Part shown: in pieces, positions 24,884-48,391 of the stretch
Layout: every line of letters starts with the position of its first letter
Numbering within the stretch: the stretch's first letter is position 1
Source: an uncultured Woeseia sp.
Lineage (GTDB): Bacteria > Pseudomonadota > Gammaproteobacteria > Steroidobacterales > UBA11654
NCBI GenBank assembly: GCA_964454905.1
Contig: CAYVTR010000001.1
Coordinates: 44,436 to 108,435 of the forward strand
Reading direction: 5' to 3'
Length of the DNA: 64,000 nt
Position numbers and translations under genes: made by a program
The notes under the pieces: model-generated
Databases searched by the model: none
What the model saw: the letters and a program-made list of their open reading frames with translations, nothing else
What the model was told of the DNA's origin: nothing

Positions 24884-24895
24884 TTGAGGTTTAAT

Positions 24896-25891
24896 ATGGA
24901 ACGAAGACAATTTTTTAAGAACATAGGTAATTTAGGAGCTTTAAGTGCAGGTGCCGCAGCTCTTAGTATATTCTCAGATCAAGCCAATGCTGATTTACCC
25001 TCTGCCTATGGGGGCGCGAGAGGTGATGCCTTAAACGGACCTTATTTAGATCTTAAAACAGGTGTAGGTAATAAATTAGCCTATTCTAGATTAAATGGTG
25101 ATTTAGATGAATCAAAGCAAAAAATCGGTTGGTTTAAAGGTTATATTATGGCCGTCAGACCCAATAAGCCTATACTTGATGTTCTTGGTGTTGCAGGCTT
25201 TGGAGTGTCTAGATTAGAGCAGCAAGCTGATGGATCCTTTGCCAAGATTCTTAGAGAGGTTGCCCTTTATACTGATCTGAGATCTGGAGAGGTTTTAGAG
25301 GAATATAAGAATCCTATGACCAATGAAATGGTTAAGGTTGTTCCTATTGCTAATGACCCTTTTAATTATGTGATTGAGGATTATTTCCCTCAGCCACCAA
25401 AATTTGGTGATTTAAACACAGAGGAACCACCAAAGATTCCATTTATTTTACCGTGGCAACAACGAGGTGATCGATTGGATATGGAGATACATATCAATCT
25501 TTTTTATCCAAATGCTCTTAATCCAAATAAATGGAAACGCGAATCTTCAGGGCCTATGGTGCAGGTATCTGAGGCCTTTGCTTATCATATTGATGCACAA
25601 AAGATGCAGGATCCAAGTTACACTACACTGCCTTTTAGTGGCACTTGGAATCGAATTACTCCATGGCTTCCTTGGATGTATATGGGTGATACCCCAGGAC
25701 ACATGATATACTCAGCCTTTATGGGTTCTGGTGAAGATCTTGAAGAAGTTCATAGTCGACAGGTATTGGATTATGTAGAAAAAAATTATCCAAAGTATTT
25801 TACTGCCCCTGAGACCTATGATCCAAAAACACCAAGCCTTTCAAGTCTTGAGTTGTATGCGATAGAGCAAACACCAGCTCCAGTGAAGTAA
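24896..25891 (+). CDS. DUF1838-like protein with twin-arginine signal (paralog 1 of 3)
   Basis: Start at ATG 24896, preceded by GAGG. Canonical Tat signal MERRQFFKNIGNLGALSAGAAALSIFSDQANA. The core YKNPMTNEMVKVVPIANDP fits my memory of DUF1838 and is clearly homologous to 46722-47519 and 47516-48391. Confidence 0.6.
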   Translation: MERRQFFKNIGNLGALSAGAAALSIFSDQANADLPSAYGGARGDALNGPYLDLKTGVGNKLAYSRLNGDLDESKQKIGWFKGYIMAVRPNKPILDVLGVAGFGVSRLEQQADGSFAKILREVALYTDLRSGEVLEEYKNPMTNEMVKVVPIANDPFNYVIEDYFPQPPKFGDLNTEEPPKIPFILPWQQRGDRLDMEIHINLFYPNALNPNKWKRESSGPMVQVSEAFAYHIDAQKMQDPSYTTLPFSGTWNRITPWLPWMYMGDTPGHMIYSAFMGSGEDLEEVHSRQVLDYVEKNYPKYFTAPETYDPKTPSLSSLELYAIEQTPAPVK

Positions 25892-25902
25892 AAAAAATAG
25901 TT

Positions 25903-26559
25903 ATGGCAAAAATAGCAAAATTAAAATCAAAAAAAAGGTTAACTCCTAGAGACCGAGAACAAGAGATTGTTGATGAGGCTGTACAATTTTTTGCCGAAGT
26001 TGGTTTTGATGGAAAAACCAGAGACTTAGCAAAAAGAATTGGCATTACACAACCGCTCTTGTATCGATATTTCCCAACAAAAGATGATCTGATAGAAAGA
26101 GTTTATAAGGAAGTTTATTTAAATCAGATGGATTCTGATTGGTCGTTAAAGCTTAAAGACCGATCTGTGCCATTGGAAGAAAGATTGGTTGCTTATTATA
26201 AATCTTATGCCAAAGTAGTTCACCGGTATGAATGGATAAGGATCTATTTCTTCTCAGGTTTAATGGGTAACCCTTTAAACAGGAGATACATAAGAGTTGT
26301 TGAGGAAGAGATTTTAAAGCCCATCTGTGAAGAAATCAGAGTAACTTGTAATTTACCTTCAATCAGCGAAATCCCCATAACACCTATTGAATTGGAACAA
26401 ATATGGGTTTTGCATGGTGGATTATTCTATTACGCTGTTAGAAAGAATATCTATCACAGTAATGTTTTCGATGACTTTGAAGCAATTGTTTCCAGCACTG
26501 TTAAGGTTATGTTGGAGGGCACCAAAGTTTTTAGCATTGAAGAACAAAATTCAACTTAA
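25903..26559 (+). CDS. TetR/AcrR family transcriptional regulator
   Basis: 218 aa. N-terminal HTH REQEIVDEAVQFFAEVGFDGKTRDLAKRIGITQPLLYRYFPTKDDL. It is the only transcription factor in the window. Confidence 0.9.
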   Translation: MAKIAKLKSKKRLTPRDREQEIVDEAVQFFAEVGFDGKTRDLAKRIGITQPLLYRYFPTKDDLIERVYKEVYLNQMDSDWSLKLKDRSVPLEERLVAYYKSYAKVVHRYEWIRIYFFSGLMGNPLNRRYIRVVEEEILKPICEEIRVTCNLPSISEIPITPIELEQIWVLHGGLFYYAVRKNIYHSNVFDDFEAIVSSTVKVMLEGTKVFSIEEQNST

Positions 26560-26593
26560 GCTGAGATTAATACACTCTTAATTAGGACTAGTT

Positions 26594-27484
26594 TTGAATA
26601 GCAAAAATAATATTCATTCTGTAGGAGTGATTGGTTTAGGGATCATTGGTTCTGCTTTATCAAAGCATATACATTTAAGTGATTTTGATGTCATGGGATT
26701 TGATATTGATGATCTTAAAATTGAAGCAGCTATTGCTAACGGAATCGAAGCCACAAAAAAGCTCGCTAATATAACAGAATTTTCCGAAGTCTTAATTACT
26801 TGCTTACCGAGCAATAAATCCTTGGACGATACTGTCAATTATCTAATAGATAATAATTGTGATTCAGTAAAAATTATTATTGATACCAGTACTCTAAGTT
26901 TGGATTGCAAGACTAGGAACAAAAACGCACTGAATAAAATTGGTATTACTTTACTTGATTGCCCAATTAGTGGCACTGGCAAGCAAGCAGAAGATGCTGA
27001 CATTGTTATATACGCCAGCGGTAGTTCAAGTTCCTATGAAACAGTGCTTCCATTGATTAGAAGTTTTTCTAGAGAATGTTTTTATTTAGGTGATTTTGGT
27101 AATGGCACTAAAACAAAATTAATAGCTAACCTCCTTGTAGCTATTCATAATGTTGCCTCTGCTGAAGCCATTTTACTGGGAAAGAAAACCGGTATAGAAA
27201 TGGAGACGTTGTTTAATGTGATTGCTTCAGGTGCAGGAAGCTCAAAAATTTTTGAGCTCCGAGCTCCTATGATGATTGAGCGAGAGTATCAACCTCCAAC
27301 CATGAAAATGAGTGTCTGGAAGAAAGATTTAGAGCTGATTAAAGAGTTAGTGGATGCCCATGGAACTAATACACCTCTTTTTAATCTCACTAAAGAATTG
27401 TATAAAAAAGCAGTTGATCTTGGTTTAGATGATGAGGACACAGCCTCTATTTATGAAATACTTAATGCAAACTCTTCTCGATGA
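26594..27484 (+). CDS. NAD(P)-dependent oxidoreductase, 3-hydroxyisobutyrate dehydrogenase family
   Basis: 296 aa with a TTG start. Rossmann motif VGVIGLGIIGSAL and a GNGTKTKLIANLL block typical of the HIBADH/6-PGDH-like family. Confidence 0.8.
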   Translation: MNSKNNIHSVGVIGLGIIGSALSKHIHLSDFDVMGFDIDDLKIEAAIANGIEATKKLANITEFSEVLITCLPSNKSLDDTVNYLIDNNCDSVKIIIDTSTLSLDCKTRNKNALNKIGITLLDCPISGTGKQAEDADIVIYASGSSSSYETVLPLIRSFSRECFYLGDFGNGTKTKLIANLLVAIHNVASAEAILLGKKTGIEMETLFNVIASGAGSSKIFELRAPMMIEREYQPPTMKMSVWKKDLELIKELVDAHGTNTPLFNLTKELYKKAVDLGLDDEDTASIYEILNANSSR

Positions 27485-27499
27485 GTAGTTTTAAGACTC

Positions 27500-28267
27500 A
27501 TGGCGAATAGCCCAATCAATTTTTATATGCAAGGCAAGGGCCAACCTCTTGTTCTTATCCATCCTCTTGGTTTGGATCATAGACTCTGGGATTATTGTGT
27601 TAGTGGTTTGGCTGAACATCGGACTCTTATCACTTTTGACTTACCGGGACATGGTCAATCACCAGTGCCTGACATTAATTATTCAATTGAGGATATTTCA
27701 AAGAGTCTTTTAGAATCGCTGAGGCTAGCTCAGATCGAAAAAGCTGATTTTTTAGGTTTATCAATTGGCGGCATGATTCTTCAACATTTTGCTTCAGTAA
27801 ATGCGTCTATGGTAGACAAGCTGATTTTAGTGGATACCACGTTCAAATACTCAAAAGATTGGCAACTTAACTGGACTGAACGAGCCAGGACCTCAAGAGA
27901 AGAGGGCTTGGAGGGCATGTTAGAGAAATTACTCGAGGCCTTTTTTACTCCAGAGTATTTAGAAAAAGGATCAGACGACATTGATTATTGTAAGCACGTC
28001 ATTTCCAGAATGTCAGGAGAGGGTTACGCTTTAGCGTGCGAAGCTTTATCAAGATGTAACCTTGAGAAATCTGCGACTGCAATAACCTCAGAGACCTTAA
28101 TCTTATGCGGAGATCGAGACAATGATCTATTCAAAGACGCAACCTTATGGTTGTCTCAAAACATACCTAATGCTCAATATGAATGGCTCTCGCCTGCCCA
28201 ACATTTGTCACCGTTGGAATGCAAGAATGATTTTTTAAAAATTGTAAAACGATTCCTGCAAATATAA
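27500..28267 (+). CDS. Alpha/beta hydrolase (3-oxoadipate enol-lactonase-like)
   Basis: 255 aa. LVLIHPLG oxyanion region and nucleophile elbow GLSIGG. Length and pattern resemble PcaD-type lactonases. Confidence 0.75.
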   Translation: MANSPINFYMQGKGQPLVLIHPLGLDHRLWDYCVSGLAEHRTLITFDLPGHGQSPVPDINYSIEDISKSLLESLRLAQIEKADFLGLSIGGMILQHFASVNASMVDKLILVDTTFKYSKDWQLNWTERARTSREEGLEGMLEKLLEAFFTPEYLEKGSDDIDYCKHVISRMSGEGYALACEALSRCNLEKSATAITSETLILCGDRDNDLFKDATLWLSQNIPNAQYEWLSPAQHLSPLECKNDFLKIVKRFLQI

Positions 28268-28274
28268 GGACGAT

Positions 28275-29351
28275 TTACTTACTCAGTTTAGGGGTTACTT
28301 CTTTTGCCATTAATTCCATGGAGCGTTTTGACAATTCTGGATTAACCCAATCATGAGCCGCATAAACCAATGTGCCAAAGTCACCAGTGATGTCTTTAAA
28401 GGCCTCTATTTGTTCAACCACACTTTCTACAGTCCCGCATATAACCAATGAATCTAGAACATATTCTAGAGTGATATCAGAATCCGCCATGTCTCTGTCG
28501 TGCTTGAAGAGATCCGGCCTTCCATTTCCAATCAGTTTTTGCATGACTTGTTTGAAATAAAAATGATAAGGCCCCTTTGCCCCTTTGCCATATTCTTGAG
28601 CTGTTTTTTCATCATCAGCAACAAATATACTTTTAGCAACCCGCCAGTTTTCTGGTTTCGCTTCATAACCGCCTTGCTCGCAGCCTTTCACATACATAGG
28701 CCAATGCGAAGCCACCCAATTTGGTTGAAGAAAGTTTGCTGAAATCGGTTGCCAACCTCGTTCTGCAGCGGCAACGACGCCTTTAGAAAAAGGAGCGACA
28801 ACCGTCACTACTATTGGAGGGTGGGGTTGTTGATATGGGGTAACAATAACTCCCTGTCCTGTTTCTTCCACGTAGTTTTTTTCAGTAGTGATATCCCAAT
28901 ATTTACCTTTGATGTTATAGGGGGCAGGATTCTGCCATATCTCCAAAATATGATTAATTGATTCAACAAACATTTCGGTTCTATCGTTATCTAGATTTCC
29001 AAAAATTTCTGCATCTGACAATAAACCGCCTGGACTGATACCAAAAAGAAATCTACCTTCAAGCATATTATCAAGCATGGCGACTTGAGCAGCCACTGCA
29101 GCCGGATGGTTATTCGGCAGGTTAACCGTTCCACTGCCCAGTTTAATATTATTTGTAGAGTCAATGAGGCTGGCTATAAACACAAGGCATGAAGTAATTG
29201 CTTCTGCTTTATCTGTTATATGTTCACCAATAAAAGCTTCACTAAAACCTAATTGATCAGCAAGTATTATGGCTTCTCTATCTTCCTTTAGCACATCCAC
29301 ATAATTCCTGCTTGGAGGATGCAAGGGCATTGTAAATAATGAAAGATTCAT
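28275..29351 (-). CDS. Luciferase-like (LLM class) flavin-dependent monooxygenase
   Basis: 358 aa. The TIM-barrel LLM pattern (LGFSEAFIGEH, GSGTVNLPNNHPAAVA, GRFLFGISPG) resembles LimB/alkanal-type monooxygenases. Confidence 0.75.
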   Translation of the reverse strand: MNLSLFTMPLHPPSRNYVDVLKEDREAIILADQLGFSEAFIGEHITDKAEAITSCLVFIASLIDSTNNIKLGSGTVNLPNNHPAAVAAQVAMLDNMLEGRFLFGISPGGLLSDAEIFGNLDNDRTEMFVESINHILEIWQNPAPYNIKGKYWDITTEKNYVEETGQGVIVTPYQQPHPPIVVTVVAPFSKGVVAAAERGWQPISANFLQPNWVASHWPMYVKGCEQGGYEAKPENWRVAKSIFVADDEKTAQEYGKGAKGPYHFYFKQVMQKLIGNGRPDLFKHDRDMADSDITLEYVLDSLVICGTVESVVEQIEAFKDITGDFGTLVYAAHDWVNPELSKRSMELMAKEVTPKLSK

Positions 29352-29378: not shown

Positions 29379-29400
29379 TTATTGATCAATTGATAAATAG
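29379..29400. promoter_or_regulatory. Palindromic operator, site B (20/22)
   Basis: TTATTGATCAATTGATAAATAG. Lies between the divergent LLM monooxygenase (start 29351) and the RidA-triple operon (start 29486). Confidence 0.7.
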
Positions 29401-29485
29401 TAGTATATCTGAATTGATTTAACAATTAAGTATCAGATTTAATCGAATACTATTGTTACAAATCAGTTAATATTCAAGGAGATTA

Positions 29486-30772
29486 ATGGCAGAACAACAA
29501 ATAACACCTATCGCAATATGGCCTGGATTGGAGGACGGGGTTCCCAAACCAATTATGCCTTATAGTCCAGCTATAAGACTAGGAGATTGGGTGTTTATAG
29601 CAGGGCAATTAGCCAGTGATTTTAAAACAGGCGTGCCCAAAGAGTTGATCCCTAAATCTGAAGGGGGTAGCACAGGGCTTCAACTTCAATCGGATTTTAT
29701 TTTCAAAAATATGACTCAGACTGTTCAAGCAGCTGAAGCTAATATGAGAACAGATGCTGTCAAACTTTGGGAATGGTTTGTCTCGAATAAACCTGATGCA
29801 CAAGATATTGCCAGTGGTAATAATGCTCATGATGTTGACATTAATAGTTATGAACGGTCACTACATCAGGCATTTGGTAACAAGTGTCCCTCTAGGTCTT
29901 CTATTGGCATTAAAGAACTAATGTGGCTTGGCACTAAAATAGAGTTAGAGGTGATGTGTCTAACCACAGAAGATAAGACCACTTATTATAATTTAGACTC
30001 TGATCCTGAAAAACATGGTGCATTGAGAAAAGGCGATTGGGTCTTTATTTCAAATCAAAATCCAGAGAATAATAAAGGAGAAACCCCAGAATCATTAGAA
30101 GCACAGTTTGATGTTGTTATGAGCAAGATTACAGAATTATCTGAACGCTCAGGTTCATCTTTAGAAAATGCAGTAAAAGCTGAGGTTTTTATCAGTCATC
30201 CAAACGACTTCATCGCAATTGACCAGTTATGGAAGAAATGGTTTCCTAATAACCCTCCAGCACGATTTGTTTTACCAAGATCAGCGATGCAAGCGGGCGA
30301 TTCAAAAGTTGAAGTTTCAATGATGTCTTTGGTTAATGACACTTCACTGTCTAAGAAAATTATTGAGACTTCTGAGGCACCAGAACCACTTGGACATGAA
30401 CCCCAAGCTGTGCAGGTTGATTATCTCTTATTTTACAGCACTCAAATGGCCTTTGATTCTTCAGGGAAGATTGCAGAAGGAATGACCAGGAATAATGCAG
30501 CACCTTGGTATGGCAGACCAGCTCAAGCACAAATGAGATATATGATGTCAAATATCAATACGATTGCTGAAGCAGCCGGTTCCTCAGTGGAGAATATTGT
30601 AAGACGAGCCTGTTTTCATAATGATTTACAGTGGTTTGCAGAATCAATTGAAGAATGGGCCAGGTATTTTCCAAATGATAAACCGGCTTCAACAACTATA
30701 GGCCTTAATGATTCATTGGTTATTGATGGCTCTAATACACTATTAGATTTAATAGCATATGTGCCTAAATAG
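29486..30772 (+). CDS. Triple-domain RidA/YjgF/TdcF-family protein
   Basis: 428 aa in three consecutive ~125-160-aa units, each opening with a RidA-like strand-helix start: PYSPAIRLGDWVFIAGQLA, HGALRKGDWVFISNQNP and EPQAVQVDYLLFYSTQMA. AAGGAG ribosome-binding site upstream. Confidence 0.7.
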   Translation: MAEQQITPIAIWPGLEDGVPKPIMPYSPAIRLGDWVFIAGQLASDFKTGVPKELIPKSEGGSTGLQLQSDFIFKNMTQTVQAAEANMRTDAVKLWEWFVSNKPDAQDIASGNNAHDVDINSYERSLHQAFGNKCPSRSSIGIKELMWLGTKIELEVMCLTTEDKTTYYNLDSDPEKHGALRKGDWVFISNQNPENNKGETPESLEAQFDVVMSKITELSERSGSSLENAVKAEVFISHPNDFIAIDQLWKKWFPNNPPARFVLPRSAMQAGDSKVEVSMMSLVNDTSLSKKIIETSEAPEPLGHEPQAVQVDYLLFYSTQMAFDSSGKIAEGMTRNNAAPWYGRPAQAQMRYMMSNINTIAEAAGSSVENIVRRACFHNDLQWFAESIEEWARYFPNDKPASTTIGLNDSLVIDGSNTLLDLIAYVPK

Positions 30773-30783
30773 CTTTTAAAATA

Positions 30784-31671
30784 ATGAAGAAAATCAGTTT
30801 TTTAGGATTGGGAAAGATGGGTTCAGTAATGGCACCATTATTCATTGAAGCAGGCCATCAACTGACAGTATTTAACCGTAATAAAGATAAAACTGAAGCC
30901 TTGAGAGAGCAGGGAGCTATGATTGCTTCCAGTCCAGCAGAAGCCTCTCAGGCATCTGAATATGTTTTTACTATGTTAAGCGATGATGCAGCGGCGGAGT
31001 CAGTGTTTTTGTCTGAACAGGGTCTGCTCAGCACTGATGTAAAAGATAAGTTGTTTATCGATATGAGCACCTTAAAACCGAGCACTGTTACGATGCTTGC
31101 CAAAAAAGTCTCTGATGCGTCAGCTTATTTTATTGATGCACCCGTTTCTGGAACAGTTGCACCAGCTGCAAAGGGGCAGCTGATGTTTTTTTGCGGCGGT
31201 GCTAGCGAGCAAATTGAAAGAGCTAGACCATTATTAGACATTTTATCTAGACGAATTATCCATGCTGGAGATATTGGGTCTGGCTCGCTTTTAAAGCTGG
31301 TGGTTAATTTGCCGTTGGCAATTTATTGGCAGGCTTTAGCGGAGGCAGTATCACTGGGTTCTTCAGGCGATCTTAGTGATGAGATTATGCTCGATGCAAT
31401 AGCAGATAGCTCAGCTGCTTTAGCAGTTCTGAAGATGAAGATACCTGTCATGCTAGGCGAAGATTTACCCGTGGCGTTTGATATGAACAGTATGGTAAAA
31501 GATTTGAAATCTATTCTTGTAACTGCTGATGAGTCAGGCCTAAGATTACCTACAACCACTTCAGCACTTAATGTGTATATAAAAGCCATTGAAGAGGGTG
31601 GAATGGGCCAAGATGATGCAGTGAAAATATTGAGTTTCGTGAAAACATTAGAAGATATTAAAACCTCTTAA
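30784..31671 (+). CDS. NAD(P)-dependent oxidoreductase, 3-hydroxyisobutyrate/tartronate-semialdehyde reductase family
   Basis: 295 aa. ISFLGLGKMGSVMA Rossmann motif, DAPVSG and GSGSLLKLVVN blocks. Confidence 0.8.
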   Translation: MKKISFLGLGKMGSVMAPLFIEAGHQLTVFNRNKDKTEALREQGAMIASSPAEASQASEYVFTMLSDDAAAESVFLSEQGLLSTDVKDKLFIDMSTLKPSTVTMLAKKVSDASAYFIDAPVSGTVAPAAKGQLMFFCGGASEQIERARPLLDILSRRIIHAGDIGSGSLLKLVVNLPLAIYWQALAEAVSLGSSGDLSDEIMLDAIADSSAALAVLKMKIPVMLGEDLPVAFDMNSMVKDLKSILVTADESGLRLPTTTSALNVYIKAIEEGGMGQDDAVKILSFVKTLEDIKTS

Positions 31672-31679
31672 AACAATCT

Positions 31680-33416
31680 ATGGAACAGTTCTCAGAAATC
31701 AAAGATGGTATGCAAATAGATTGGGATGTCTCAATTGAAATGGATGATGGACTGATCTTAAGAGCAGATATTTTTAGACCAATTAGTGAGGGACAATACC
31801 CTGTTTTAATTACATACGGACCTTATGCTAAAGGGCTTCCTTTTCAGCAGGGCTATCCTAGTGCTTGGGACAGAATGGCTGAAAAACACCCGGATGTTAC
31901 TGCTGGTTCTTCAAATAAATATCAAAATTGGGAAGTGGTTGATCCAGAGAAATGGGTTCCTGATGGATATGTTTGTGTACGAATTGATTCCAGGGGTTGT
32001 GGAGCTTCTCCAGGATATATAGATCATTTTTCTCCCAGAGAAACGCTCGACTTTGTGAATTGCATAGAATGGGCGGGACAACAAGAATGGAGTAACGGTA
32101 ATGTCGGTATTAATGGTGTGTCCTACTATGGTATCAATCAATGGCAGGTAGCTTCAAAGCAACCTAAGTACCTCAAAGCAATGTGCATTTGGGAAGGCGC
32201 GAGTGATTGGTATCGAGACATGACCCACCATGGCGGTATTCTTAGCACCTTTTGGGCCAATTGGTTTGATATGCAGGTTAAAACAGTACAATACGGACTT
32301 GGTCACAATGGCATGATTAATCAATTTAATCATAGACCTATTTGTGGCGATACAGAATTGACAGAAGCTGAGCTTGAGAAGAATCGTTGTAATTTTGGTG
32401 AAGAAATTAAAGCCCATCCAATGATGGATGAATACCATAAAGAAAGATCAGCGGTTTGGGAAAAAATTACAATACCATTCCTATCGGCTGGCAATTGGGG
32501 TGGCCAAGGTCTGCATCTGAGAGGGAATACTGAAGGCTTTGATAGAGCTGCATCCAATAATAAGTGGTTGGAGATGCATGGTCTTGAGCATTGGACGGAG
32601 TTTTATACAGATTATGGTGTCAATCTTCAAAAACGTTTTTTTAATCATTATCTTAAAGGGGCAAATAATGACTGGAGTCAGCAACCTAGAGTTCAACTTC
32701 AGGTCAGGTATATTAATGGTTTTAAGGAGCGTCATGAAAATGAATGGCCAATTGAAAGAACTCAATGGACAAAGATGTACCTTGATGCAGACAACAATTT
32801 GAATCATCAACATTCAGTTACTTCATCATCCTCATTATCATACGAAGCCATAGGTGAGGGTTTAAATTTCAAATCAAAACCCTTTGAGCAAGAGACAGAG
32901 ATCACAGGTCCATTGGCACTTAAATTATTTATTTCTTCTTCTACAGCTGATACAGATCTATTTGTTGCAATGAGATTATTCAGTGATACAGATAAAGAGA
33001 TAGTGTTTCAGGGAGCTGTTGACCCTTATACTCCAATTGCTCAAGGGTGGTTAAGGGCATCTCACAGAAAGCTGGATACAGACCTCTCTAAACCATGGAG
33101 GCCGTATCATAGCCATGATCAAAAGCAGTTATTGGATCCTGATGAAATTGTTGAGCTTGATATAGAGATTTGGCCAACTTCAATTGTTATACCTGAAAAT
33201 TATTATTTAGTCTTAACCGTCAGGGGTAAAGACTATGAATACCCTTTAGCAGAGACACAAATTTTATCTAATTTTAAGAATCAACTGACCGGTTGTGGAC
33301 CCTTCCTACATAATGATCCTTCTGATAGGAATGAGAATCTCGAGAGCATCACCACACTTCACTTTAGTCCAGAGAACCCTTCCTATTTGTTGTTACCAAT
33401 TATTCCTGAAAAATGA
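31680..33416 (+). CDS. CocE/NonD family (S15 X-Pro dipeptidyl-peptidase-like) hydrolase
   Basis: 578 aa. YPVLITYGPY, VRIDSRGCGASPG and serine elbow GINGVSYYG, with the large C-terminal jelly-roll domain typical of CocE/NonD. Confidence 0.8.
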   Translation: MEQFSEIKDGMQIDWDVSIEMDDGLILRADIFRPISEGQYPVLITYGPYAKGLPFQQGYPSAWDRMAEKHPDVTAGSSNKYQNWEVVDPEKWVPDGYVCVRIDSRGCGASPGYIDHFSPRETLDFVNCIEWAGQQEWSNGNVGINGVSYYGINQWQVASKQPKYLKAMCIWEGASDWYRDMTHHGGILSTFWANWFDMQVKTVQYGLGHNGMINQFNHRPICGDTELTEAELEKNRCNFGEEIKAHPMMDEYHKERSAVWEKITIPFLSAGNWGGQGLHLRGNTEGFDRAASNNKWLEMHGLEHWTEFYTDYGVNLQKRFFNHYLKGANNDWSQQPRVQLQVRYINGFKERHENEWPIERTQWTKMYLDADNNLNHQHSVTSSSSLSYEAIGEGLNFKSKPFEQETEITGPLALKLFISSSTADTDLFVAMRLFSDTDKEIVFQGAVDPYTPIAQGWLRASHRKLDTDLSKPWRPYHSHDQKQLLDPDEIVELDIEIWPTSIVIPENYYLVLTVRGKDYEYPLAETQILSNFKNQLTGCGPFLHNDPSDRNENLESITTLHFSPENPSYLLLPIIPEK

Positions 33417-34078
33417 ATATTAATAATCAGAAAATTATAGCTTTAATTCATGCCCTAGAAGAATCTGAAGAACCTATTAAGCAATCATTTAAAAAAATAT
33501 GGCCTGACGTGATATTAAATCAATATGCTGATTTTAAACTGTCTAAAGATAGAGCTAGAGGTGTAGATGAGGCTATTATTAGAGAGAGAATTATTGATCT
33601 GGGGATGGCTGCCATTGAAGATGGAGTCGATGCAATATTATACACTTGCAGCGCTTTCGGGGACGCAATTAATGCCGCTAAAGAGCAAATTAATATTCCA
33701 GTGTTTAGACCAAATGAGTCAGCCTTTGATGAGGCAATCATCAAAGGAAAAACGGTTCACATCTTAGTGACATTTATTCCATCATTAGAGCTGTTGGTCA
33801 ATGAATTTAAAACAATGAGCAAGGGATTAAATATAGATGTGAATGGTTATTTGGTTGACGGTGCTCTGAATGATTTGAAAAATGATCAGGTTGATCTACA
33901 CAACAAAAAAATCATCGAAGCAATAAGAAAGATTCCTGAAAATGAAACGGTCATTCTGGGACAATTCTCAATGGCTAGAGCTTCAGATTTAATTGCAAAA
34001 GAAATGCCAAATCGTCTTGTTCTTAATACTCCTGATGCATCTGTATTAAGACTAAGAGATACTATTGCACCCAAGTAA
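33413..34078 (+). CDS. Asp/Glu/hydantoin racemase-like family protein (assignment tentative)
   Basis: 221 aa with two-lobed alpha/beta organisation. A DAILYTCSAFG block resembles the racemase/arylmalonate decarboxylase superfamily. 4-nt overlap with the upstream gene. Confidence 0.45.
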   Translation: MNINNQKIIALIHALEESEEPIKQSFKKIWPDVILNQYADFKLSKDRARGVDEAIIRERIIDLGMAAIEDGVDAILYTCSAFGDAINAAKEQINIPVFRPNESAFDEAIIKGKTVHILVTFIPSLELLVNEFKTMSKGLNIDVNGYLVDGALNDLKNDQVDLHNKKIIEAIRKIPENETVILGQFSMARASDLIAKEMPNRLVLNTPDASVLRLRDTIAPK

Positions 34079-35546
34079 AACGACTTCTTTTTCTCAAATA
34101 TTGTCTGGAGTCAGTTTCATCCAAAAGCTGTTCTTGCAAATGATCTGATTCTCTTACAACTTCACCATGATCAATAGTTTTATGCTTGCCATTCTCAACA
34201 ACAACTTCTCCTTGAACCATTACTGCTGTAATTGCACCTTGATTCGGTCCATTGCCGTACACTAAATTAGCTATCATCGCACCCATCGGTGTCAAATGAC
34301 TTTCAGATGTTCTATCTATGAGTAGAATATCTGCAAACTTCCCTGACTCCAGAGATCCAATTTTTTCATCCATCATAAGGGCTTTAGCACCATCAATGGT
34401 AGCTAATTCAAGTGCTTGCTCAGCACTGCCATAAAGAACTTCATCACCCGTCCATTTAGTTTGAGTATCAGACATCATGGTGCGATGCTGATCCCCCATT
34501 CTTTGTGCTGTAAGGAAGCTTCTCATTGCCGTCCAAAGATCATGACCATAAGCAACCACTGGCCCATCTAGGCCTAGACCACAAGTTACATTTGATTCCA
34601 AAAACTTTTTTGCATCAAAATTAACTAAACCAAGTACTTGTTCCATATCCGGGACTAAAGCCACAGCTGCTCCACAATCAGCAATTAATTTCTCTTCTCC
34701 TGACCTTAGGTTTTGTGAGTGTGCAGAGATAACATTTGGACCTAGAATTCCAACATGATCTAACCATTCAAAAGAACCGCCTTCCCATCCTCTTCTGGAG
34801 GCAAGATATTTGTGATCTAGTACAGCTGGTGCATGAATATCAAATTGCCTATCATTATCAACAGTCCATTTCCAAAGTTCAATGAGCTGATCAGGTTCAC
34901 AGTAAGTGATTCCTATTGTTGAAGCGGTCACTGATATTTTATCATTCTCCCACTCAGATTTTACCCTTTCGGTTTCAGCTAATCCTTCATCTAATTCTTC
35001 TCTGAAACCATCGGGTACAGCTTCTTTGTCATTGATTGTTAGTCTCGCCATTCGACAACGTATCCCCGAGTCATCAATTGCTTTTAAAACTCCATCAATA
35101 GATCTTTTATGTAGATGTGTAAAATGATCATCAGCTGTTGTGGTTACACCTCTCAGCAGAAGATCCATGATTGGCGGCATTGATGCTATATAGGACCTTT
35201 CTTCATCGCATGCTCCTGTCATAGGGTAATAAAATCCAAACAATCTTTCTTCATAGGTTGTGCCATCTGCCATCCCTCTCATACACCCCTGGATTAAATG
35301 AGAATGTACATTGACTAGTCCTGGTAAAACAATAAAACCATCCCCTCCGAGTTGATTATCAGATTCATATTCACATTCACTTATCGATCCAACTGATTCA
35401 ATTATTCCATTGTTAACTGCAACATATCCATCGAGAAAAACATGTCGCTCTTGATCCATTGAAATAACAATTCCTTTGAGTAAAGTGTCACATTTTTTCT
35501 TCATGACCATTTTAATTATTTTTCCCCAATGACTGTTGATCCACAT
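34062..35546 (-). CDS. Metal-dependent amidohydrolase (TRZ/ATZ, aminohydrolase/deaminase-like)
   Basis: PGLVNVHSHLIQG HxH metal motif, plus later H and D ligands. The likely true start is ATG 35510 (MVMKKKCDTLL), 1 nt after the stop of the upstream MFS gene. Confidence 0.8.
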   Translation of the reverse strand: MWINSHWGKIIKMVMKKKCDTLLKGIVISMDQERHVFLDGYVAVNNGIIESVGSISECEYESDNQLGGDGFIVLPGLVNVHSHLIQGCMRGMADGTTYEERLFGFYYPMTGACDEERSYIASMPPIMDLLLRGVTTTADDHFTHLHKRSIDGVLKAIDDSGIRCRMARLTINDKEAVPDGFREELDEGLAETERVKSEWENDKISVTASTIGITYCEPDQLIELWKWTVDNDRQFDIHAPAVLDHKYLASRRGWEGGSFEWLDHVGILGPNVISAHSQNLRSGEEKLIADCGAAVALVPDMEQVLGLVNFDAKKFLESNVTCGLGLDGPVVAYGHDLWTAMRSFLTAQRMGDQHRTMMSDTQTKWTGDEVLYGSAEQALELATIDGAKALMMDEKIGSLESGKFADILLIDRTSESHLTPMGAMIANLVYGNGPNQGAITAVMVQGEVVVENGKHKTIDHGEVVRESDHLQEQLLDETDSRQYLRKRSRFTWVQ

Positions 35547-36834
35547 TGTAAAGCGTTATTAATAAACAGCTTATAAATAAACATATCACTGGGAAACCCC
35601 CAGCATTGAAATACATCATATTGATCACGCTCTCTGATTGAGAATTTGATGAGGCATCATAATCAACATAACCCAGCAAAATGCCCAAAATCGATGGCCC
35701 TATTGCAAAAGATAATTTCTCGACTGTTGTGTATACACCAGCCAAGATTCCTTCTCGTCTATGACCGCTGGTTTGAAAATCATATTGCATGGTATCTGGT
35801 AGCATCGATTGCCCCACTAAAAGAAGCCCACCTGCACCAATTCCAAGAAATACACCTCTGATGATGATACCTATTTCTGATTCTCCAGAAGTAACAAGCA
35901 TCCATGATAATGCTCCTAATCCCCAAGATATAGAGGCTAAATAGTAGCCATTTTTCTTACCAATCTTATTAACAATTTTTACCCAAATTGGCTGTGAAAT
36001 TAACATAACTGATCCTTGTACCAGAAAGTAGAAGCCCAAATAATTGTAGGAAAGATCCATGACCCTAGTAAATAAATAGGGCAAAGACGCTAAGAAAACT
36101 GCAAAGCCTGTTAATTGTGTAACCTTTATACCCAATAATATTGCAAAAGGTTTGATTTGAAATGCTGTCTTAAATTGTTGAAAGAATGAGCCAGATTCTT
36201 TTGTTTCAATATCTGAATTAACAAATGACGCGTCTTTGGTCATCCATACACAAAGAACTCCTGCTAGAACCATAATGATGGCTAACGTATTGGCCATACC
36301 ACTATGACCAATGATCCCACTACCAAAGAAGACAACCAATGCAGGCCCCAAAGCTGAGCCACCTAACTGGCCAGCCGCAACCGCCATCACTCTGTATGAC
36401 ATTAGATCAGTTCTTGCATTGTAATCCGTTGTAATCTCAGCAGGCATGGCTAAATAAGGCACATTAAAAATGGTATAGCCTGTGGCATTAAGTATCAGAG
36501 CAAATAGTGTAATCAAGATTATATTTTGAGAATCAGAAAAGAGAGCTAAATTGAATAGCAAAATAAAAGATAAAGCACACATTATGGTCCCCAAGAGAAC
36601 ATAGGGTCTTCTTTTCCCCCAAGAGCTTCTTGTTTTGTCACTAATCCTACCCATCACTGGGTCTGTGAGAGCGTCATAAATTTTAGATAACCCGATCAGT
36701 AGACCAGCTGTTGTGGCATTCATATTGACAAAATCAGTCAGGTAAACCAGCAAAAGCAAGCCATTGGCTTGAAACATCAGTGAAACTGTTAGAGTTCCAA
36801 TACCCCAGCCAAATTTTGTTTTAAAAGGGAGCAT
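35512..36834 (-). CDS. GPH-family (MelB-like) cation symporter of the MFS superfamily
   Basis: 440 aa, 12 TM. Signature DPVMGRISDKTRSSWGKRRPY is typical of glycoside-pentoside-hexuronide transporters. Confidence 0.8.
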   Translation of the reverse strand: MLPFKTKFGWGIGTLTVSLMFQANGLLLLVYLTDFVNMNATTAGLLIGLSKIYDALTDPVMGRISDKTRSSWGKRRPYVLLGTIMCALSFILLFNLALFSDSQNIILITLFALILNATGYTIFNVPYLAMPAEITTDYNARTDLMSYRVMAVAAGQLGGSALGPALVVFFGSGIIGHSGMANTLAIIMVLAGVLCVWMTKDASFVNSDIETKESGSFFQQFKTAFQIKPFAILLGIKVTQLTGFAVFLASLPYLFTRVMDLSYNYLGFYFLVQGSVMLISQPIWVKIVNKIGKKNGYYLASISWGLGALSWMLVTSGESEIGIIIRGVFLGIGAGGLLLVGQSMLPDTMQYDFQTSGHRREGILAGVYTTVEKLSFAIGPSILGILLGYVDYDASSNSQSESVINMMYFNAGGFPVICLFISCLLITLYNVDQQSLGKNN

Positions 36835-38821: not shown

Positions 38822-41134
38822 CTATTTTATGGGTTTAATTTTAGGGAATCCCCACGGGGTTTTCCAAGGGGCTCTGAGATAGGTTGTGTCTCCATCTTTT
38901 TCAAATATTCCTAGGTATTCAATTTGCGGGTGTTTTACTAGTTCTTTTATGTCTGAAAATTCAACTGCCCAAACTTCATAACGGTTAAAGATTTCTAAAA
39001 CTTGCTTTGATGACATTGTTGTTAAGTATTTATCCCAAAGTGGGCTTGCATCGCTTGCTTTGGTTCCTACTCCAAAAGAATTCCACCAATTCTTTACTAG
39101 GATTTCATCTTCCATGAATTCATCATACATTCCAAATTCCTTAATCATTTTATGGAAGTTATCTTCAGTAAGGGCAGGAGAAGGGGTCGCAAAAATAGAC
39201 TTATCTTTAGTCCGTTGACCAAAGTTAGAGCCGGCAGTTTCATTTTTACAGAAATTTCCTTCCCAACTGTCTGGGTTACTCATTCCTGACCATTGAAGAG
39301 TTTTTAAAGACATCATCGTGCCCAGCATGCTGCCTGAAACTTTTTGTCCATTGCCGGTTTGTAACCGATGATAAAGAGCAGCTAGAATAGCAATAAAGTT
39401 CATTGCTGCGGTACAACCAGCAACAACATCCGCACCCACTCTAATGGGTTCTCCTCCAACATCTCCTAGTGTGCGAAGATATCCAGACATAGCTTGGATA
39501 CTCAAGTCACTCCCAGTCTGATTTTTCATTGGACCATGATGACCAAAAGCGGACAGTGAAAAATTAATGATTTTTGGATTAAATGATTTTAGTTTTTCAT
39601 AGTTATAGACAGAAGATTCATTTGCATCTTCTTTCCAGTCCTCTATCAAGATATCGGTTTCAGACAACATGGATTCAAATTCTTGTCGACCCTTGTCTGA
39701 TTGAATGTCAACTTCTTTAATAGTCTTATTGCGATTAAATGATTGATACAAGGCGCTGACCCCATGTTTTGTTTGTGGGCTTAGTTCTTTGGACCAATCT
39801 CCACCGACCGGTTCAATTTTTGTTACTTCAGCACCAGCCTCTGCAAGCATAAAGCTTAAGTAAGGTCCGGTGTAACCCTCGGTAAGGTCTAGAACACGTA
39901 TTCCTTTCAGCGGGTATTCGGCTTGATCTGTTTTTGCAATAGTCTCTTTTTTTGTAGAATTTTTGAAGCCATTACTCATGGCGTCTTCAGTGTCTGCTCC
40001 AGGCACAGGTATATTAAGATCTATTTGAGGCGGGCTTTCGCTAAACTCCCATGGTAGTCCACCAACATGAAATGGACCAGTGTGCTCACCATCAACTTCA
40101 ACAAGGAAATTGTTTTCGATAATTTGCTGATGTAATTGAAGATCGTCAAAGCATAAATCAAAACTGTGAGGAATGTTTTCATTATCAAATCTTAATGCCC
40201 ACCAACGTGATGGTTTTAAAAGAAATTGTGATTCAAGAATTTGATCTAACTCATCGCGGTTTTTTATTCGATCAACATTATTAATAAACCTGTCATCTTC
40301 AATTAAGTTCTCCATTTCTATTGCTCTGCAAAACCCTAACCATTGATCTTGGTTTTCACATGTGACTGCTATGTATTTATTATCTAAGCATAAATAACAT
40401 CGATTTGGAGCTGAGTTTGAAGAGCCACTGCCGAGTGGTTCTAATTCAGAATCAGCTAACAATACTTCTGAAACTTTACTGTTCATGTTAGCTAGTGCAT
40501 TAGCTAGATGTGAAGTTCTTACCCAACAAGCATGCCCGAAGCGCTCCCTTTCTATAAGGCCAAGCATTAATAACCCACAGAAAAAAATTGCCCCAGTCGG
40601 ATCTAAATGAGTGAAACGAATTAATTGACCGTCTCCACCCCTTGATCCGGTGACACCACTCATTCCACTGAAGGCTTGAAGATGTGGTTCAAGTGCTGCT
40701 AAATTTTTCATGGGCCCGTCATCGCCATAACCAGAGCTAGAGCCAAAAATCAGATTTGGATTTGATGCATGAAGTGTTTCATAACCAATACCCATTCGAT
40801 CAGCGACACCAGGTCTAAAATTTTCGATGAGAATATCTGCTTGATTTGCTAAGTTCAGCATAGCGTTCATGCCTTCAGGTTCTTTAGTATTAAGACCTGC
40901 AGATTTTTGGTTAAGGTTTGTAGAACTGTAAGCAGTTGAGAGATTATTTTGATGTGGGTAGAGCATTCTAAGGAATTCACCTTTTGGAGGTTCCACTTTG
41001 ATAACTTCTGCTCCAAGATAACCCAGTAAGGTTGCAGCCCATGGGCCCACGATTGAAGTGCCAATACTTAAGACTTTAATTCCTGCAAGAGGTCCTTTAT
41101 TTTCCTTCACTTTATCTCCAAAATTGGTGTTCAA
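38822..41134 (-). CDS. Tandem-duplicated family III CoA-transferase (two CaiB/BaiF-type modules in one chain)
   Basis: 770 aa. Module 1 opens GPLAGIKVLSIGTSIVGPWAATLLGYLGAEVIKVEPPKG. Module 2 opens YPLKGIRVLDLTEGYTGPYLSFMLAEAGAEVTKIEPVGGD at about residue 405. Each module has a GxGxxGP...QAxSG block. Confidence 0.85.
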   Translation of the reverse strand: MNTNFGDKVKENKGPLAGIKVLSIGTSIVGPWAATLLGYLGAEVIKVEPPKGEFLRMLYPHQNNLSTAYSSTNLNQKSAGLNTKEPEGMNAMLNLANQADILIENFRPGVADRMGIGYETLHASNPNLIFGSSSGYGDDGPMKNLAALEPHLQAFSGMSGVTGSRGGDGQLIRFTHLDPTGAIFFCGLLMLGLIERERFGHACWVRTSHLANALANMNSKVSEVLLADSELEPLGSGSSNSAPNRCYLCLDNKYIAVTCENQDQWLGFCRAIEMENLIEDDRFINNVDRIKNRDELDQILESQFLLKPSRWWALRFDNENIPHSFDLCFDDLQLHQQIIENNFLVEVDGEHTGPFHVGGLPWEFSESPPQIDLNIPVPGADTEDAMSNGFKNSTKKETIAKTDQAEYPLKGIRVLDLTEGYTGPYLSFMLAEAGAEVTKIEPVGGDWSKELSPQTKHGVSALYQSFNRNKTIKEVDIQSDKGRQEFESMLSETDILIEDWKEDANESSVYNYEKLKSFNPKIINFSLSAFGHHGPMKNQTGSDLSIQAMSGYLRTLGDVGGEPIRVGADVVAGCTAAMNFIAILAALYHRLQTGNGQKVSGSMLGTMMSLKTLQWSGMSNPDSWEGNFCKNETAGSNFGQRTKDKSIFATPSPALTEDNFHKMIKEFGMYDEFMEDEILVKNWWNSFGVGTKASDASPLWDKYLTTMSSKQVLEIFNRYEVWAVEFSDIKELVKHPQIEYLGIFEKDGDTTYLRAPWKTPWGFPKIKPIK

Positions 41135-46721: not shown

Positions 46722-47519
46722 ATGGATCGCAGAGCTTTATTATCGGGTAAATTTACAGAAGACACACTTAATCTGAGTAATTCAGGTCATAGTCTATATG
46801 CTTATGCAAAGTTATTGGGCTCAACAGATAATGCAATGGTTCACTTTAGTCTAGAGGGGACAATTTTCGCGCTATTACCTAATGGTGCCAAACCATTCAT
46901 AGGTTTTCAGGCCATACAGAAAGGCGTTTGGAAAAAACACGGTCAAAACTCATTTCAATTGAGATTATATGAAACTGGTTTTTTTCATGATCTAGACTCA
47001 AAAGAGCATATCGCGGTTTTTGAAAACCCCATTACCAATCAAACAAATCATCTGTCAGAGATCAGAGGCGGACCTTATGAAACTATAATTAAGCCAACAC
47101 AACATGATTGGGTAGTTTCAGGTGACGATGTTTGGATTCAGGAGCCCAATCCAAGAATAGGTTATTTTGGTTCAGCAGAAGCAAAAAATAAAAATAAACA
47201 AACTGCATTTGCTAACACTATTTTTAGAGGAAAGTTATCTCAGTTAAATGATGAATCATCCATAGCAGCATCAATGATGACTTACAATTATGTAAGTCCA
47301 TGGTATCCATTTTTTGAGATGGACAATGTTGAAGGAAAAATGTATTGGCAAGCTGTTGGAAATAAAACCCAATCTTGGTCTGATGTACCCACATCAATGC
47401 AAGAATTTTTAACAACAACCCAGAACAATTATTTTGAATCAACTAATCCATGGACTGAGAGAACGAGCACATTGAAGCATTTTAGACAATCTAATAAGCG
47501 GGATAAAATAAGACCATGA
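46722..47519 (+). CDS. DUF1838-like protein (paralog 2 of 3), with an RR motif but no hydrophobic signal core
   Basis: 265 aa. Shares YAYAKLLGSTDNAMVHF, GTIFA, KPFIGF, KGVWKK, FENPITN, SPWYPFFEM and YWQAVGNK blocks with 47516-48391. The N-terminus MDRRALLSGKFTED lacks an h-region. Confidence 0.6.
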   Translation: MDRRALLSGKFTEDTLNLSNSGHSLYAYAKLLGSTDNAMVHFSLEGTIFALLPNGAKPFIGFQAIQKGVWKKHGQNSFQLRLYETGFFHDLDSKEHIAVFENPITNQTNHLSEIRGGPYETIIKPTQHDWVVSGDDVWIQEPNPRIGYFGSAEAKNKNKQTAFANTIFRGKLSQLNDESSIAASMMTYNYVSPWYPFFEMDNVEGKMYWQAVGNKTQSWSDVPTSMQEFLTTTQNNYFESTNPWTERTSTLKHFRQSNKRDKIRP

Positions 47520-48391
47520 AAAAACAGATTAACAGGAGGCAAATGATTGGTGGCATGAGTGCTTTAGCGGTCTCGCCTCATTTAGTGTCTGGTCAAGGCC
47601 TTGATATCGTAGATCATAAGATTGATTTAAGTGATCCGGTTCAAAATGCACTAGCTTATGCCAAATTAGTGGGTACATCTGACAGAAGCATGATACACAT
47701 TTACTATAAAGGAACAATATTTGGAATGACTCCAGAGGAGGGCGTTAAGCCTATGATTGGCCACACCGGTGTTTTAAAGGGTGTTTGGAAACCATGGATT
47801 AACAATAGTTTTTACTACACGCTCTACGATGTAGGTTATTTTATGGATCTGAAAACAGGATTACCTGCAGAAGAATTCGAGAATCCTTTTACAGGTGAGA
47901 TTAATCGTCCAGTTAAGATTATTGGCGGCCCATTTGATCGAGTAATTAAACCAGAAGTACGACCATTTGAAAACAGGGGTGATGATCTTTGGTTAGATGA
48001 GCCTGCTTTTCTCAATTTTGTTAACAAGCTTGATCCAAAAATATGGAAGAAAGCTTCAACAGCAGAGAAACTCAGTTTTCTTTATGTTGAAACATATCAT
48101 GGAAAATTATCCGATTTAGCAAATCCTGATATCACAAGTGCACCCATGCAAATTACATCCACACACAATACCAGTTGGTATCCATTCTTTCTCATGGGAC
48201 AACGACCTGGAGGACACTATTGGCAAGCTGTAGGTAAAAAGATCCAGGATCTTGAAAGTGATGTCCCTATTGAATTGATTAATTATATTGAGAAAGAGCA
48301 ACCGGGGTATTTTGAGTCTGAAAAACCTTGGAAAAAAAGAAAAGGTACCTTTCAGGCCTATAAAGATGAGAGGGAGCCTATCCAAGGTTGA
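47516..48391 (+). CDS. DUF1838-like protein (paralog 3 of 3) with twin-arginine signal
   Basis: 291 aa. Tat signal NRRQMIGGMSALAVSPHLVSG. Same conserved blocks as paralog 2. ATGA overlap with the upstream gene. Confidence 0.6.
   Translation: MKKQINRRQMIGGMSALAVSPHLVSGQGLDIVDHKIDLSDPVQNALAYAKLVGTSDRSMIHIYYKGTIFGMTPEEGVKPMIGHTGVLKGVWKPWINNSFYYTLYDVGYFMDLKTGLPAEEFENPFTGEINRPVKIIGGPFDRVIKPEVRPFENRGDDLWLDEPAFLNFVNKLDPKIWKKASTAEKLSFLYVETYHGKLSDLANPDITSAPMQITSTHNTSWYPFFLMGQRPGGHYWQAVGKKIQDLESDVPIELINYIEKEQPGYFESEKPWKKRKGTFQAYKDEREPIQG

Follow-up and report, generated by a model that had tools for sequence, protein, structure and literature searches.

A three-Rid-domain protein from an uncultured Woeseia sp.: a candidate covalent pseudo-trimer with differentiated sites and a conserved operon context

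Rid-type proteins such as RidA, TdcF, YjgF and UK114 are homotrimers, and a locus in an uncultured Woeseia sp. raises the question of what becomes of such a trimer when its three units are joined in a single polypeptide. The stretch of DNA analysed here (the window; 64,000 nucleotides, positions 44,436 to 108,435 of the forward strand of contig CAYVTR010000001.1, assembly GCA_964454905.1) carries, at 29486..30772 on the forward strand, a gene for a protein with three Rid domains, referred to below as 3x-Rid. Each of its domains has the fold of the homotrimeric proteins, with one chain in place of three. We favour, with some confidence, the reading that 3x-Rid is a compact pseudo-trimer that mimics the RidA homotrimer and serves as a pathway-specific hydrolase of enamine- or imine-type carboxylates within a TetR-controlled catabolic operon.

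The open reading frame (ORF) begins with ATG, runs uninterrupted and specifies 428 amino acids plus a stop codon, as judged from the list of ORFs and the translation, giving a single chain of 47 kDa. A Shine–Dalgarno sequence, AAGGAG (29476..29481, +), was read 4 nt upstream of the ATG. A preliminary description of this DNA, made from the letters alone, had recognized three consecutive RidA-like units in the chain, and domain parsing bears this out, finding three YjgF domains and not one or two. The Pfam family PF01042 (Ribonuc_L-PSP, Rid/YjgF) matches the whole protein in three stretches with a summed score of 129.6 bits. When the protein was cut in thirds and each third was scanned separately, residues 1–165 (D1; 38.4 bits, E = 1.5e-9), 166–293 (D2; 52.8 bits, E = 4.9e-14) and 294–428 (D3; 49.9 bits, E = 3.9e-13) each exceeded the Pfam gathering score of 27.3 alone, and E-values between 1.5e-9 and 4.9e-14 place these matches far beyond chance. 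The three motif segments quoted in the preliminary description lie at residues 25–43, 178–193 and 307–322. From the Pfam matches, the alignment with RidA, the mapping of site residues and a 61-sequence family alignment, D1 was delimited as residues 1–163 (29486..29974, +), a Rid domain with insertions of about 30 residues, D2 as residues 164–287 (29975..30346, +), the most RidA-like of the three, and D3 as residues 288–428 (30347..30769, +), the most conserved. Pairwise identity among the domains is only 20–27%, and each is 26–29% identical to Escherichia coli RidA, for which a reference sequence that agrees with the published residue numbering was used. The three domains are about as far apart from one another as each is from E. 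coli RidA, so the triplication is old.

The protein belongs to a large family. A word-indexed search returned 547 homologues; almost all of the best 120 are of full length (415–484 amino acids, with one of 309), and these 120 are 43–98% identical and come mostly from marine metagenomes. A survey restricted to one genome per species located 66 loci encoding 3x-Rid proteins in Woeseia/Woeseiaceae, Porticoccaceae, Steroidobacteraceae, Rhodospirillaceae, Hyphomonadaceae (Hyphomonas, Ponticaulis) and Thermoleophilia, the closest protein among them being from Woeseia/Woeseiaceae with 86% identity. An exhaustive profile search against 1.84 billion cluster representatives found 10,446 matches with E <= 1e-3, of which 209 reached E <= 1e-30, and most of the best 150 are 400–470 amino acids long. 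Typing of these with separate hidden Markov models (HMMs) for D1, D2 and D3 revealed that most carry the domains in the colinear order D1–D2–D3, as in the window protein, and that D1 and D3 are specialized relative to D2; other three-domain families look like three generic, D2-like RidA domains, one example being a Rhizobium cluster with WP_017958468.1 as a member. One further protein, P0256 (803 amino acids), contains six Rid-like stretches in one chain and is a possible covalent double trimer. The names attached to these proteins at source are all generic ('RidA family protein', 'Rid family hydrolase', 'enamine deaminase RidA'), and the names of 20 distant cluster representatives, checked for a characterized member, were likewise generic only.

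The architecture itself is not a finding of this analysis, as it has carried a name since 2015. Niehaus et al. (2015, BMC Genomics 16:382; PMC4433059) defined '3x-RidA', with EF_0115 of Enterococcus faecalis V583 as an example, described the class as 'presumably covalently linked trimer units' and then put it to one side; of other fusions they mention only 2x and 4x forms, as rare. The three-domain architecture is therefore already known and is common in databases, and the window protein is an uncharacterized member of it. The preliminary description had proposed a single-chain triple Rid protein as a possible covalent pseudo-trimer; that proposal gains support from what follows, but as an idea it is not new. 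In the literature searched, the term 3x-RidA was found in Niehaus et al. (2015) only, searches for triple or tandem Rid chains, for pseudo-trimers and for CocE/NonD and LLM partners yielded nothing beyond that paper, and no functional study of EF_0115 was found. The tandem fusion of three Rid domains is common to the 2015 class and to the window protein, whereas the lineage of the latter bears domain-specific D1–D2–D3 signatures and, at the catalytic arginine position of the three domains, the pattern R-R-S (mostly S-R-S in its relatives), in contrast to the other three-domain families, which look like three generic RidA domains and some of which keep R-R-R.

Does such a chain fold as a trimer would? 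An AlphaFold2 model computed from the 61-sequence alignment is one compact body with a mean predicted local distance difference test score (pLDDT) of 91.0 and a predicted template-modelling score (pTM) of 0.93; in a chain of three domains such a pTM means that the packing between domains is confidently predicted. The model contains three β-α-β-α-β-β units of the chorismate-mutase-like fold at residues 9–159, 165–283 and 290–425, separated by linkers of about 5–6 residues, and these agree with the unit boundaries proposed earlier (1–160, 161–285 and 286–428). In a Foldseek comparison with the PDB, single RidA chains each cover one domain (target-normalized TM-score 0.81–0.89 over about 140 columns, 22–27% identity), and the chorismatases 4BPS, 5A3K and 5AG3, with targets of 331–335 amino acids, cover the whole chain (374–387 columns, target-normalized TM-score 0.59–0.64, 11–12% identity, E = 6.7e-13). 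Chorismatases are single-chain pseudo-trimers of YjgF-like domains; they are reportedly pseudo-threefold, resemble the RidA trimer and possess one specialized site. The whole-chain superposition therefore indicates that the global arrangement of domains is shared with a solved covalent pseudo-trimer. A profile search of the PDB found no chain with three Rid domains recognizable by sequence. The pTM, the chorismatase match and covariation between D1 and D3, described below, together strongly suggest that the chain would close into a RidA-like ring, and the preliminary description, which had named a predicted structure without trimer-like closure as one refuting outcome, is not refuted by a compact body of this kind that matches chorismatases over its full length. 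Although a single chain of three YjgF-like units is common to 3x-Rid and to the chorismatases FkbO, Hyg5 and XanB2, the domains of 3x-Rid are each still recognizable as PF01042, identity is at the 11–12% level noted above, and the genomic context is catabolic, as opposed to the shikimate-derived biosynthesis in which chorismatases are found. That 3x-Rid is itself a chorismatase was rejected on sequence (no chorismatase model among the NCBIfam matches at E <= 0.1, no chorismatase chain among the best 60 of 64 PDB profile matches at E <= 10, and low identity) and on context.

The fusion of a homotrimer into one chain frees its sites from having to stay identical, and the residues of the three domains reflect this: with the three copies held in one chain, the copies have specialized. 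In TdcF, seven conserved residues line the pocket (Y17, G31, N56, N88, R105, P114 and E120); the 'Arg side' of each cleft (R105, C107 and N88, with a known Asn88–Arg105 contact) is contributed by one subunit and E120 lies on the opposite side (PMC1884159). The topology of the fold would put Y17 and G31 with E120, on the side opposite the arginine. Five of the seven positions (Y17, G31, N88, R105 and E120) were mapped in each domain of the 61-sequence alignment, and N56 was placed by eye in D3 (N356). D1 retains the equivalents of Tyr17, Gly31 and Glu120 (Y26, G40 and E153) in 61/61 sequences each, and its Arg105 equivalent, R137 in the window protein (codon 29894..29896, +), is Ser in 40/61 and Arg in 11/61, the arginine occurring only in the subclade of the window protein. 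D2 carries R260 (codon 30263..30265, +), the catalytic Arg105 equivalent and the sole one that is invariant family-wide (61/61), within a PAR motif whose P258 and A259 are also invariant, together with D246 at the Asn88 position (58/61) and E276 at that of Glu120; it lacks a Tyr at the Tyr17 position and has Asn, Ala, Ser or Gly at that of Gly31. Relative to RidA, the Arg–Asn(Asp) pair and the PAR motif are thus kept in D2, and the Tyr, Gly and Glu are kept in D1. In D3 the arginine position is occupied by an invariant serine, S402 (61/61; codon 30689..30691, +), Tyr17 is replaced by E305 (61/61), Gly31 by T319 and Glu120 by L419, and Ile stands at the Asn88 position. H304 and E305 (codons 30395..30400, +), the equivalents of Pro16 and Tyr17, lie in the β1–β2 loop of this domain and were singled out by inter-domain covariation.

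Conservation is also highest in D3, which has 34 invariant residues and a mean score of 0.81, compared with 0.66 for D1 and 0.65 for D2. The invariant residues of catalytic type in D3 are H304, E305, R335, Y342, R373, R374, C376, H378, the S402–T403–T404 strand and D421, and R335 and Y342 are borne by an insert specific to D3. Of 244 full-length sequences, 87 read S-R-S at the Arg105 position of D1, D2 and D3, 19 share the R-R-S of the window protein and four have R-R-R. The earlier expectation of three non-equivalent sites is accordingly correct (Arg invariant in D2 only, Ser invariant in D3 and D1 variable), and the question that it had posed, of which interface keeps the conserved arginine, has R260 of D2 as its answer, the only one kept throughout the family.

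Which domains face each other across each cleft was approached through covariation, measured as mutual information with average product correction (MIp) over 199 distinct sequences (effective number of sequences, Neff, about 95), a measure that ignores phylogeny. The pair D246–R260 ranked second of 28,291 intra-domain pairs; as this recovers the Asn88–Arg105 contact, it serves as a positive control. Among 60,149 inter-domain pairs, the top two were D246(D2)–E305(D3) and R260(D2)–E305(D3), with z = 6.9, and D246(D2)–H304(D3) ranked fifth. Covariation of D246 and R260 with H304 and E305 would place the arginine-bearing cleft between D2 and D3. The D1–D3 pairs C158–W383 and C158–T418 are also among the top inter-domain pairs, and coupling between the first and the last domain is what ring closure requires. 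Fisher tests of association among 85 representatives clustered at 50% identity, which likewise ignore phylogeny, gave a consistent direction. R260 occurs together with an acidic or amide residue at position 305 of D3 (46/62 versus 3/23, p = 6e-7) and showed no association with Y26 or E153 of D1 (p = 0.46); S402 of D3 goes with E153 of D1 (p = 0.008) and not with E276 of D2 (p = 1); and S137 of D1 goes with G190 of D2 (p = 0.003) and not with E305 of D3 (p = 0.8). By both mean and maximum MIp, the Arg side of each domain Di couples more strongly with the Tyr/Gly/Glu side of Di+1 than with that of Di-1, in all three domains. Conservation of the β1–β2 loop is 0.92 in D1, 0.38 in D2 and 0.81 in D3, and that of the Arg-side strand is 0.67, 0.92 and 0.89, respectively, so that both faces of the predicted D2|D3 and D3|D1 clefts are conserved and both faces of D1|D2 are weakly so. 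The same pairing is favoured by the short linkers and by the order of strands in the sheet (SCOP topology). Taken from sequence variation of this kind, it appears likely that the Arg side of each Di faces Di+1.

The gene neighbourhood indicates the setting in which these clefts may work. 3x-Rid heads a tight four-gene unit: a β-hydroxyacid dehydrogenase of HIBADH type follows 11 nt past it (30784..31671, +; PF03446 and PF14833, with NCBIfam HIBADH-type matches below cutoffs), then, after an 8 nt gap, a CocE/NonD-family serine hydrolase with the motif GVSYYG (31680..33416, +; TIGR00976, 209 bits versus a cutoff of 66) and, overlapping the latter by 4 nt, an Asp/Glu/hydantoin-racemase-like protein (33413..34078, +; PF01177, 38.9 bits). 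An LLM flavin monooxygenase (28275..29351, -; PF00296, 115 bits) is divergent from the unit. This is the operon that the preliminary description had drawn, and it recurs across loci. Among 51 related loci with sufficient flanking sequence, 39 have a CocE/NonD gene on the same strand no more than 1.3 kb downstream and 35 have a HIBADH gene directly after 3x-Rid; an LLM gene occurs in 31, the racemase-like gene and an α/β hydrolase in 25 each, an amidohydrolase in 23 and a TetR regulator in 21. The conserved core is 3x-Rid, HIBADH and CocE/NonD.

On these grounds the following scheme can be proposed. 3x-Rid would be a monomeric pseudo-trimer. The D2|D3 cleft would keep the substrate-binding R260, held in place by D246, and would bind a carboxylate, with the invariant His-Glu loop of D3 as its cap in place of the canonical Tyr. 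In the D3|D1 cleft the invariant Ser-Thr-Thr strand would meet the canonical Tyr/Gly/Glu side of D1, and the D1|D2 cleft, in which an arginine (R137) would have been regained in the subclade of the window protein, would be the least conserved. The CocE/NonD hydrolase may cleave an ester or amide to give an enamine- or imine-type intermediate, which the His-Glu loop of D3, standing in for the canonical Tyr/Glu, would protonate and hydrate to an oxo acid and ammonia; the oxo or hydroxy acid so formed could in turn be acted on by the HIBADH enzyme.

Several points weigh against this proposal. The covariation on which the pairing of domains leans is uncorrected for phylogeny and draws on a Neff of only about 95, and the opposite pairing, in which D2 would turn its Arg side towards D1, would bring R260 together with Y26, G40 and E153 in one fully canonical RidA site. 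Under the favoured pairing the canonical seven-residue pocket comes together in no single cleft, so that imine deaminase activity is not assured. The three domains, the spread of the family, the asymmetry of its sites, the conservation of the operon and the confident compact fold are results of the analysis; ring closure and the pairing of domains across the clefts are predictions from the pTM, Foldseek and covariation, and the catalytic chemistry and type of substrate are likewise proposals. No biochemically or structurally characterized 3x-Rid protein was found in the literature searched, and the conserved core of the 51 loci contains no obvious enzyme that would generate an imine or enamine.

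The same pseudo-trimer might accordingly carry out a different chemistry, a possibility that we rate as unlikely but worth serious attention. One site would then be specialized, as in the chorismatases, for instance for the hydrolysis of an enol ether or enol ester, for tautomerization or for decarboxylation; it would lie either where D2 meets D3 (the His/Glu/Arg cleft) or where D3 meets D1 (the Ser/Thr cleft), and its substrate would be a product of CocE/NonD. It is in keeping with such a site that chorismatases are the best whole-chain structural match, that D3 is the most conserved domain with catalytic-type invariant residues foreign to canonical RidA, and that the full TdcF set is found in no predicted cleft. 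Yet no chorismatase family appears among the NCBIfam matches at E <= 0.1 and no chorismatase chain among the best 60 of 64 PDB profile matches at E <= 10, the matches beyond these 60 all having E > 0.35; the conserved core has no shikimate or aromatic-polyketide genes, and the best score of every domain remains that of a generic Rid domain. Were this chemistry to hold, the D1–D2–D3 lineage would be a second independent symmetry-broken YjgF triplication after the chorismatases, with a new non-deaminase site, an Arg-Asp/His-Glu cleft between D2 and D3, and perhaps a second, Ser/Thr, cleft between D3 and D1, in a widespread and unrecognized pathway of marine Gamma- and Alphaproteobacteria, a conclusion to which we can give only tentative and limited credence.

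Improbable, in our judgement, is that 3x-Rid is a fused housekeeping RidA whose three sites are equivalent and detoxify 2-aminoacrylate. The database labels 'RidA family protein' and 'enamine deaminase RidA' imply as much, and TIGR00004 (Rid family detoxifying hydrolase) gives the whole protein 129.3 bits, above its cutoff of 106.25, but that score is a sum over three domains. Equivalent sites are hard to reconcile with an arginine that every member lacks in D3 and most lack in D1, and with domains only 20–27% identical to one another. The gene also lies in a conserved, operator-controlled catabolic operon and not near genes of amino-acid biosynthesis, and some of the same metagenome-assembled genomes (MAGs) hold paralogues in other catabolic contexts.

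Still less probable is a non-catalytic role as a binder or scaffold, in which the arginine cleft would merely hold a carboxylate ligand, as a sensor or as a chaperone for neighbouring enzymes. Rid clefts do hold carboxylates without turnover in crystals (TdcF; PMC1884159), and most canonical catalytic residues are replaced in 3x-Rid, but the gene is translationally coupled within an operon of enzymes, polar residues of catalytic type are strongly conserved and a TetR regulator is already present in the operon. An assembly or annotation artefact, three adjacent rid genes misread as one ORF, is effectively refuted, nothing having been found in its favour, by the uninterrupted reading frame, by linkers of merely about 5–6 residues and by the 415–484-amino-acid architecture in hundreds of independent assemblies, including the complete chromosomes CP179212.1 and OZ220696.1.

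A further comparison concerns the Rut pyrimidine pathway, in which RutA is an LLM enzyme, RutC a Rid protein, RutD an α/β hydrolase and RutR a TetR regulator. The enzyme types of the 3x-Rid cluster are analogous (LLM, Rid, α/β hydrolase, reductase, permease and TetR). The RutC equivalog TIGR03610 scores 67.3 bits on 3x-Rid versus a cutoff of 169.1, RutD scores 45 bits versus a cutoff of 238, and RutA is absent among the best 25 of 29 LLM matches. Because the RutC and RutD scores fall far below their cutoffs, orthology with the Rut pathway was rejected and a loose analogy was kept. In a further difference from Rut, the LLM and α/β hydrolase genes are missing from many 3x-Rid loci, and the constant partner is CocE/NonD.

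The operon has further genes on both of its sides. Upstream, a TetR regulator (25903–26559), a second HIBADH-type dehydrogenase and a PcaD-like α/β hydrolase were assigned from domain matches at 25903..28267 (+), and these three are co-conserved in many related loci. Downstream, a TRZ/ATZ-type amidohydrolase or deaminase (34062..35546, -; PF01979, with NCBIfam deaminase families below cutoffs) converges on the operon, and a GPH-family cation symporter is encoded beside it (35512..36834, -; TIGR00792, 210 bits). The racemase-like gene, ending at 34078, and the amidohydrolase gene, with its lowest coordinate at 34062, share 17 nt at their 3' ends (34062–34078), which leaves no space for an intergenic terminator.

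In the divergent intergenic region between the LLM and 3x-Rid genes, a search for inverted repeats identified a palindromic, operator-like site, TTATTGATCAATTGATAA (29379..29396, with no strand assigned), which is presumably the 'operator B' of the preliminary description. The motif, with core TTATCAATTGATAA, has 17 matches in the window with three or fewer mismatches, where 0.44 would be expected; among the other positions are 23542, 41143, 45704, 45745, 49922, 50779, 58079 and 58147 (and 1674 and 7493). Copies whose neighbours were inspected lie at or just upstream of gene starts, namely those of an MFS gene, a double CoA-transferase operon and MTHFR, and further copies are near genes for a BBE-like oxidase, an NmrA-like protein, an MBL-fold protein and a TonB receptor. 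This recurrence suggests one regulon extending over much of the 64 kb island.

Within the same island, the double CoA-transferase is a 770-amino-acid protein (38822–41134, -) with two CoA_transf_3 stretches, that is, a fused double family-III CoA-transferase, and its operon partners are an acyl-CoA dehydrogenase, an α/β hydrolase, an FAD_binding_2 oxidoreductase, an MBL-fold protein and an AMP-ligase. The island also holds genes for three DUF1838 proteins, at 24884–25891, 46722–47519 and 47516–48391, the latter two in tandem and adjoining MTHFR. BBE-like FAD oxidases at 48400–49890 and at 56494–57969 (-) and a UbiD-family decarboxylase at 54282–55763 (-) also belong to this operator-marked island and hint at the catabolism of aromatic, phenolic or alkaloid-like compounds.

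Among the surveyed loci, several MAGs contain two 3x-Rid paralogues each (locus pairs L004/L019, L003/L034, L014/L025 and L026/L047), one in a CocE/NonD operon and the other elsewhere, for example in an arrangement of an LLM gene followed further on by an α/β hydrolase and 3x-Rid. The neighbours of the paralogues outside CocE/NonD operons include isochorismatase, SDR, Amidohydro_2, DUF1989, glyoxalase-like and Vgb-lyase-like genes, a heterogeneous set that gave no single clue to a substrate. Some loci were assigned to unexpected taxa. One from an Akkermansiaceae bin (L016) has a TetR–HIBADH–3xRid–HIBADH–CocE cluster with the same identities as a Porticoccaceae locus (L015), one from a Marinimicrobia bin (L028) has the full cluster in the gene order of a Rhodospirillaceae locus (L033), and for two others, from a Candidatus Uhrbacteria bin (L029) and a second Marinimicrobia bin (L043), the 3x-Rid gene alone is shown. 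Mis-binning is the likely cause in these four cases, and possibly recent transfer.

What this analysis adds to the known architecture is modest but concrete: it delimits a large, differentiated D1–D2–D3 lineage with an S/R-R-S pattern at its sites, in which R260 and D246 are coupled to H304 and E305 and in which the gene has CocE/NonD and HIBADH as conserved partners. In the pattern of the family, one predicted cleft keeps its arginine under a new His-Glu cap, one swaps the arginine for serine and one decays, which makes the 3x-Rid family a convenient natural system for following symmetry breaking in the Rid fold. There is also a consequence for annotation: the labels 'RidA family protein' and 'enamine deaminase' are attached to hundreds of these proteins, yet no predicted cleft in them is canonical. 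Finally, the close linkage of 3x-Rid, conserved across many loci, to CocE/NonD and a β-hydroxyacid dehydrogenase marks an uncharacterized catabolic module in abundant bacteria of marine sediments and the water column.

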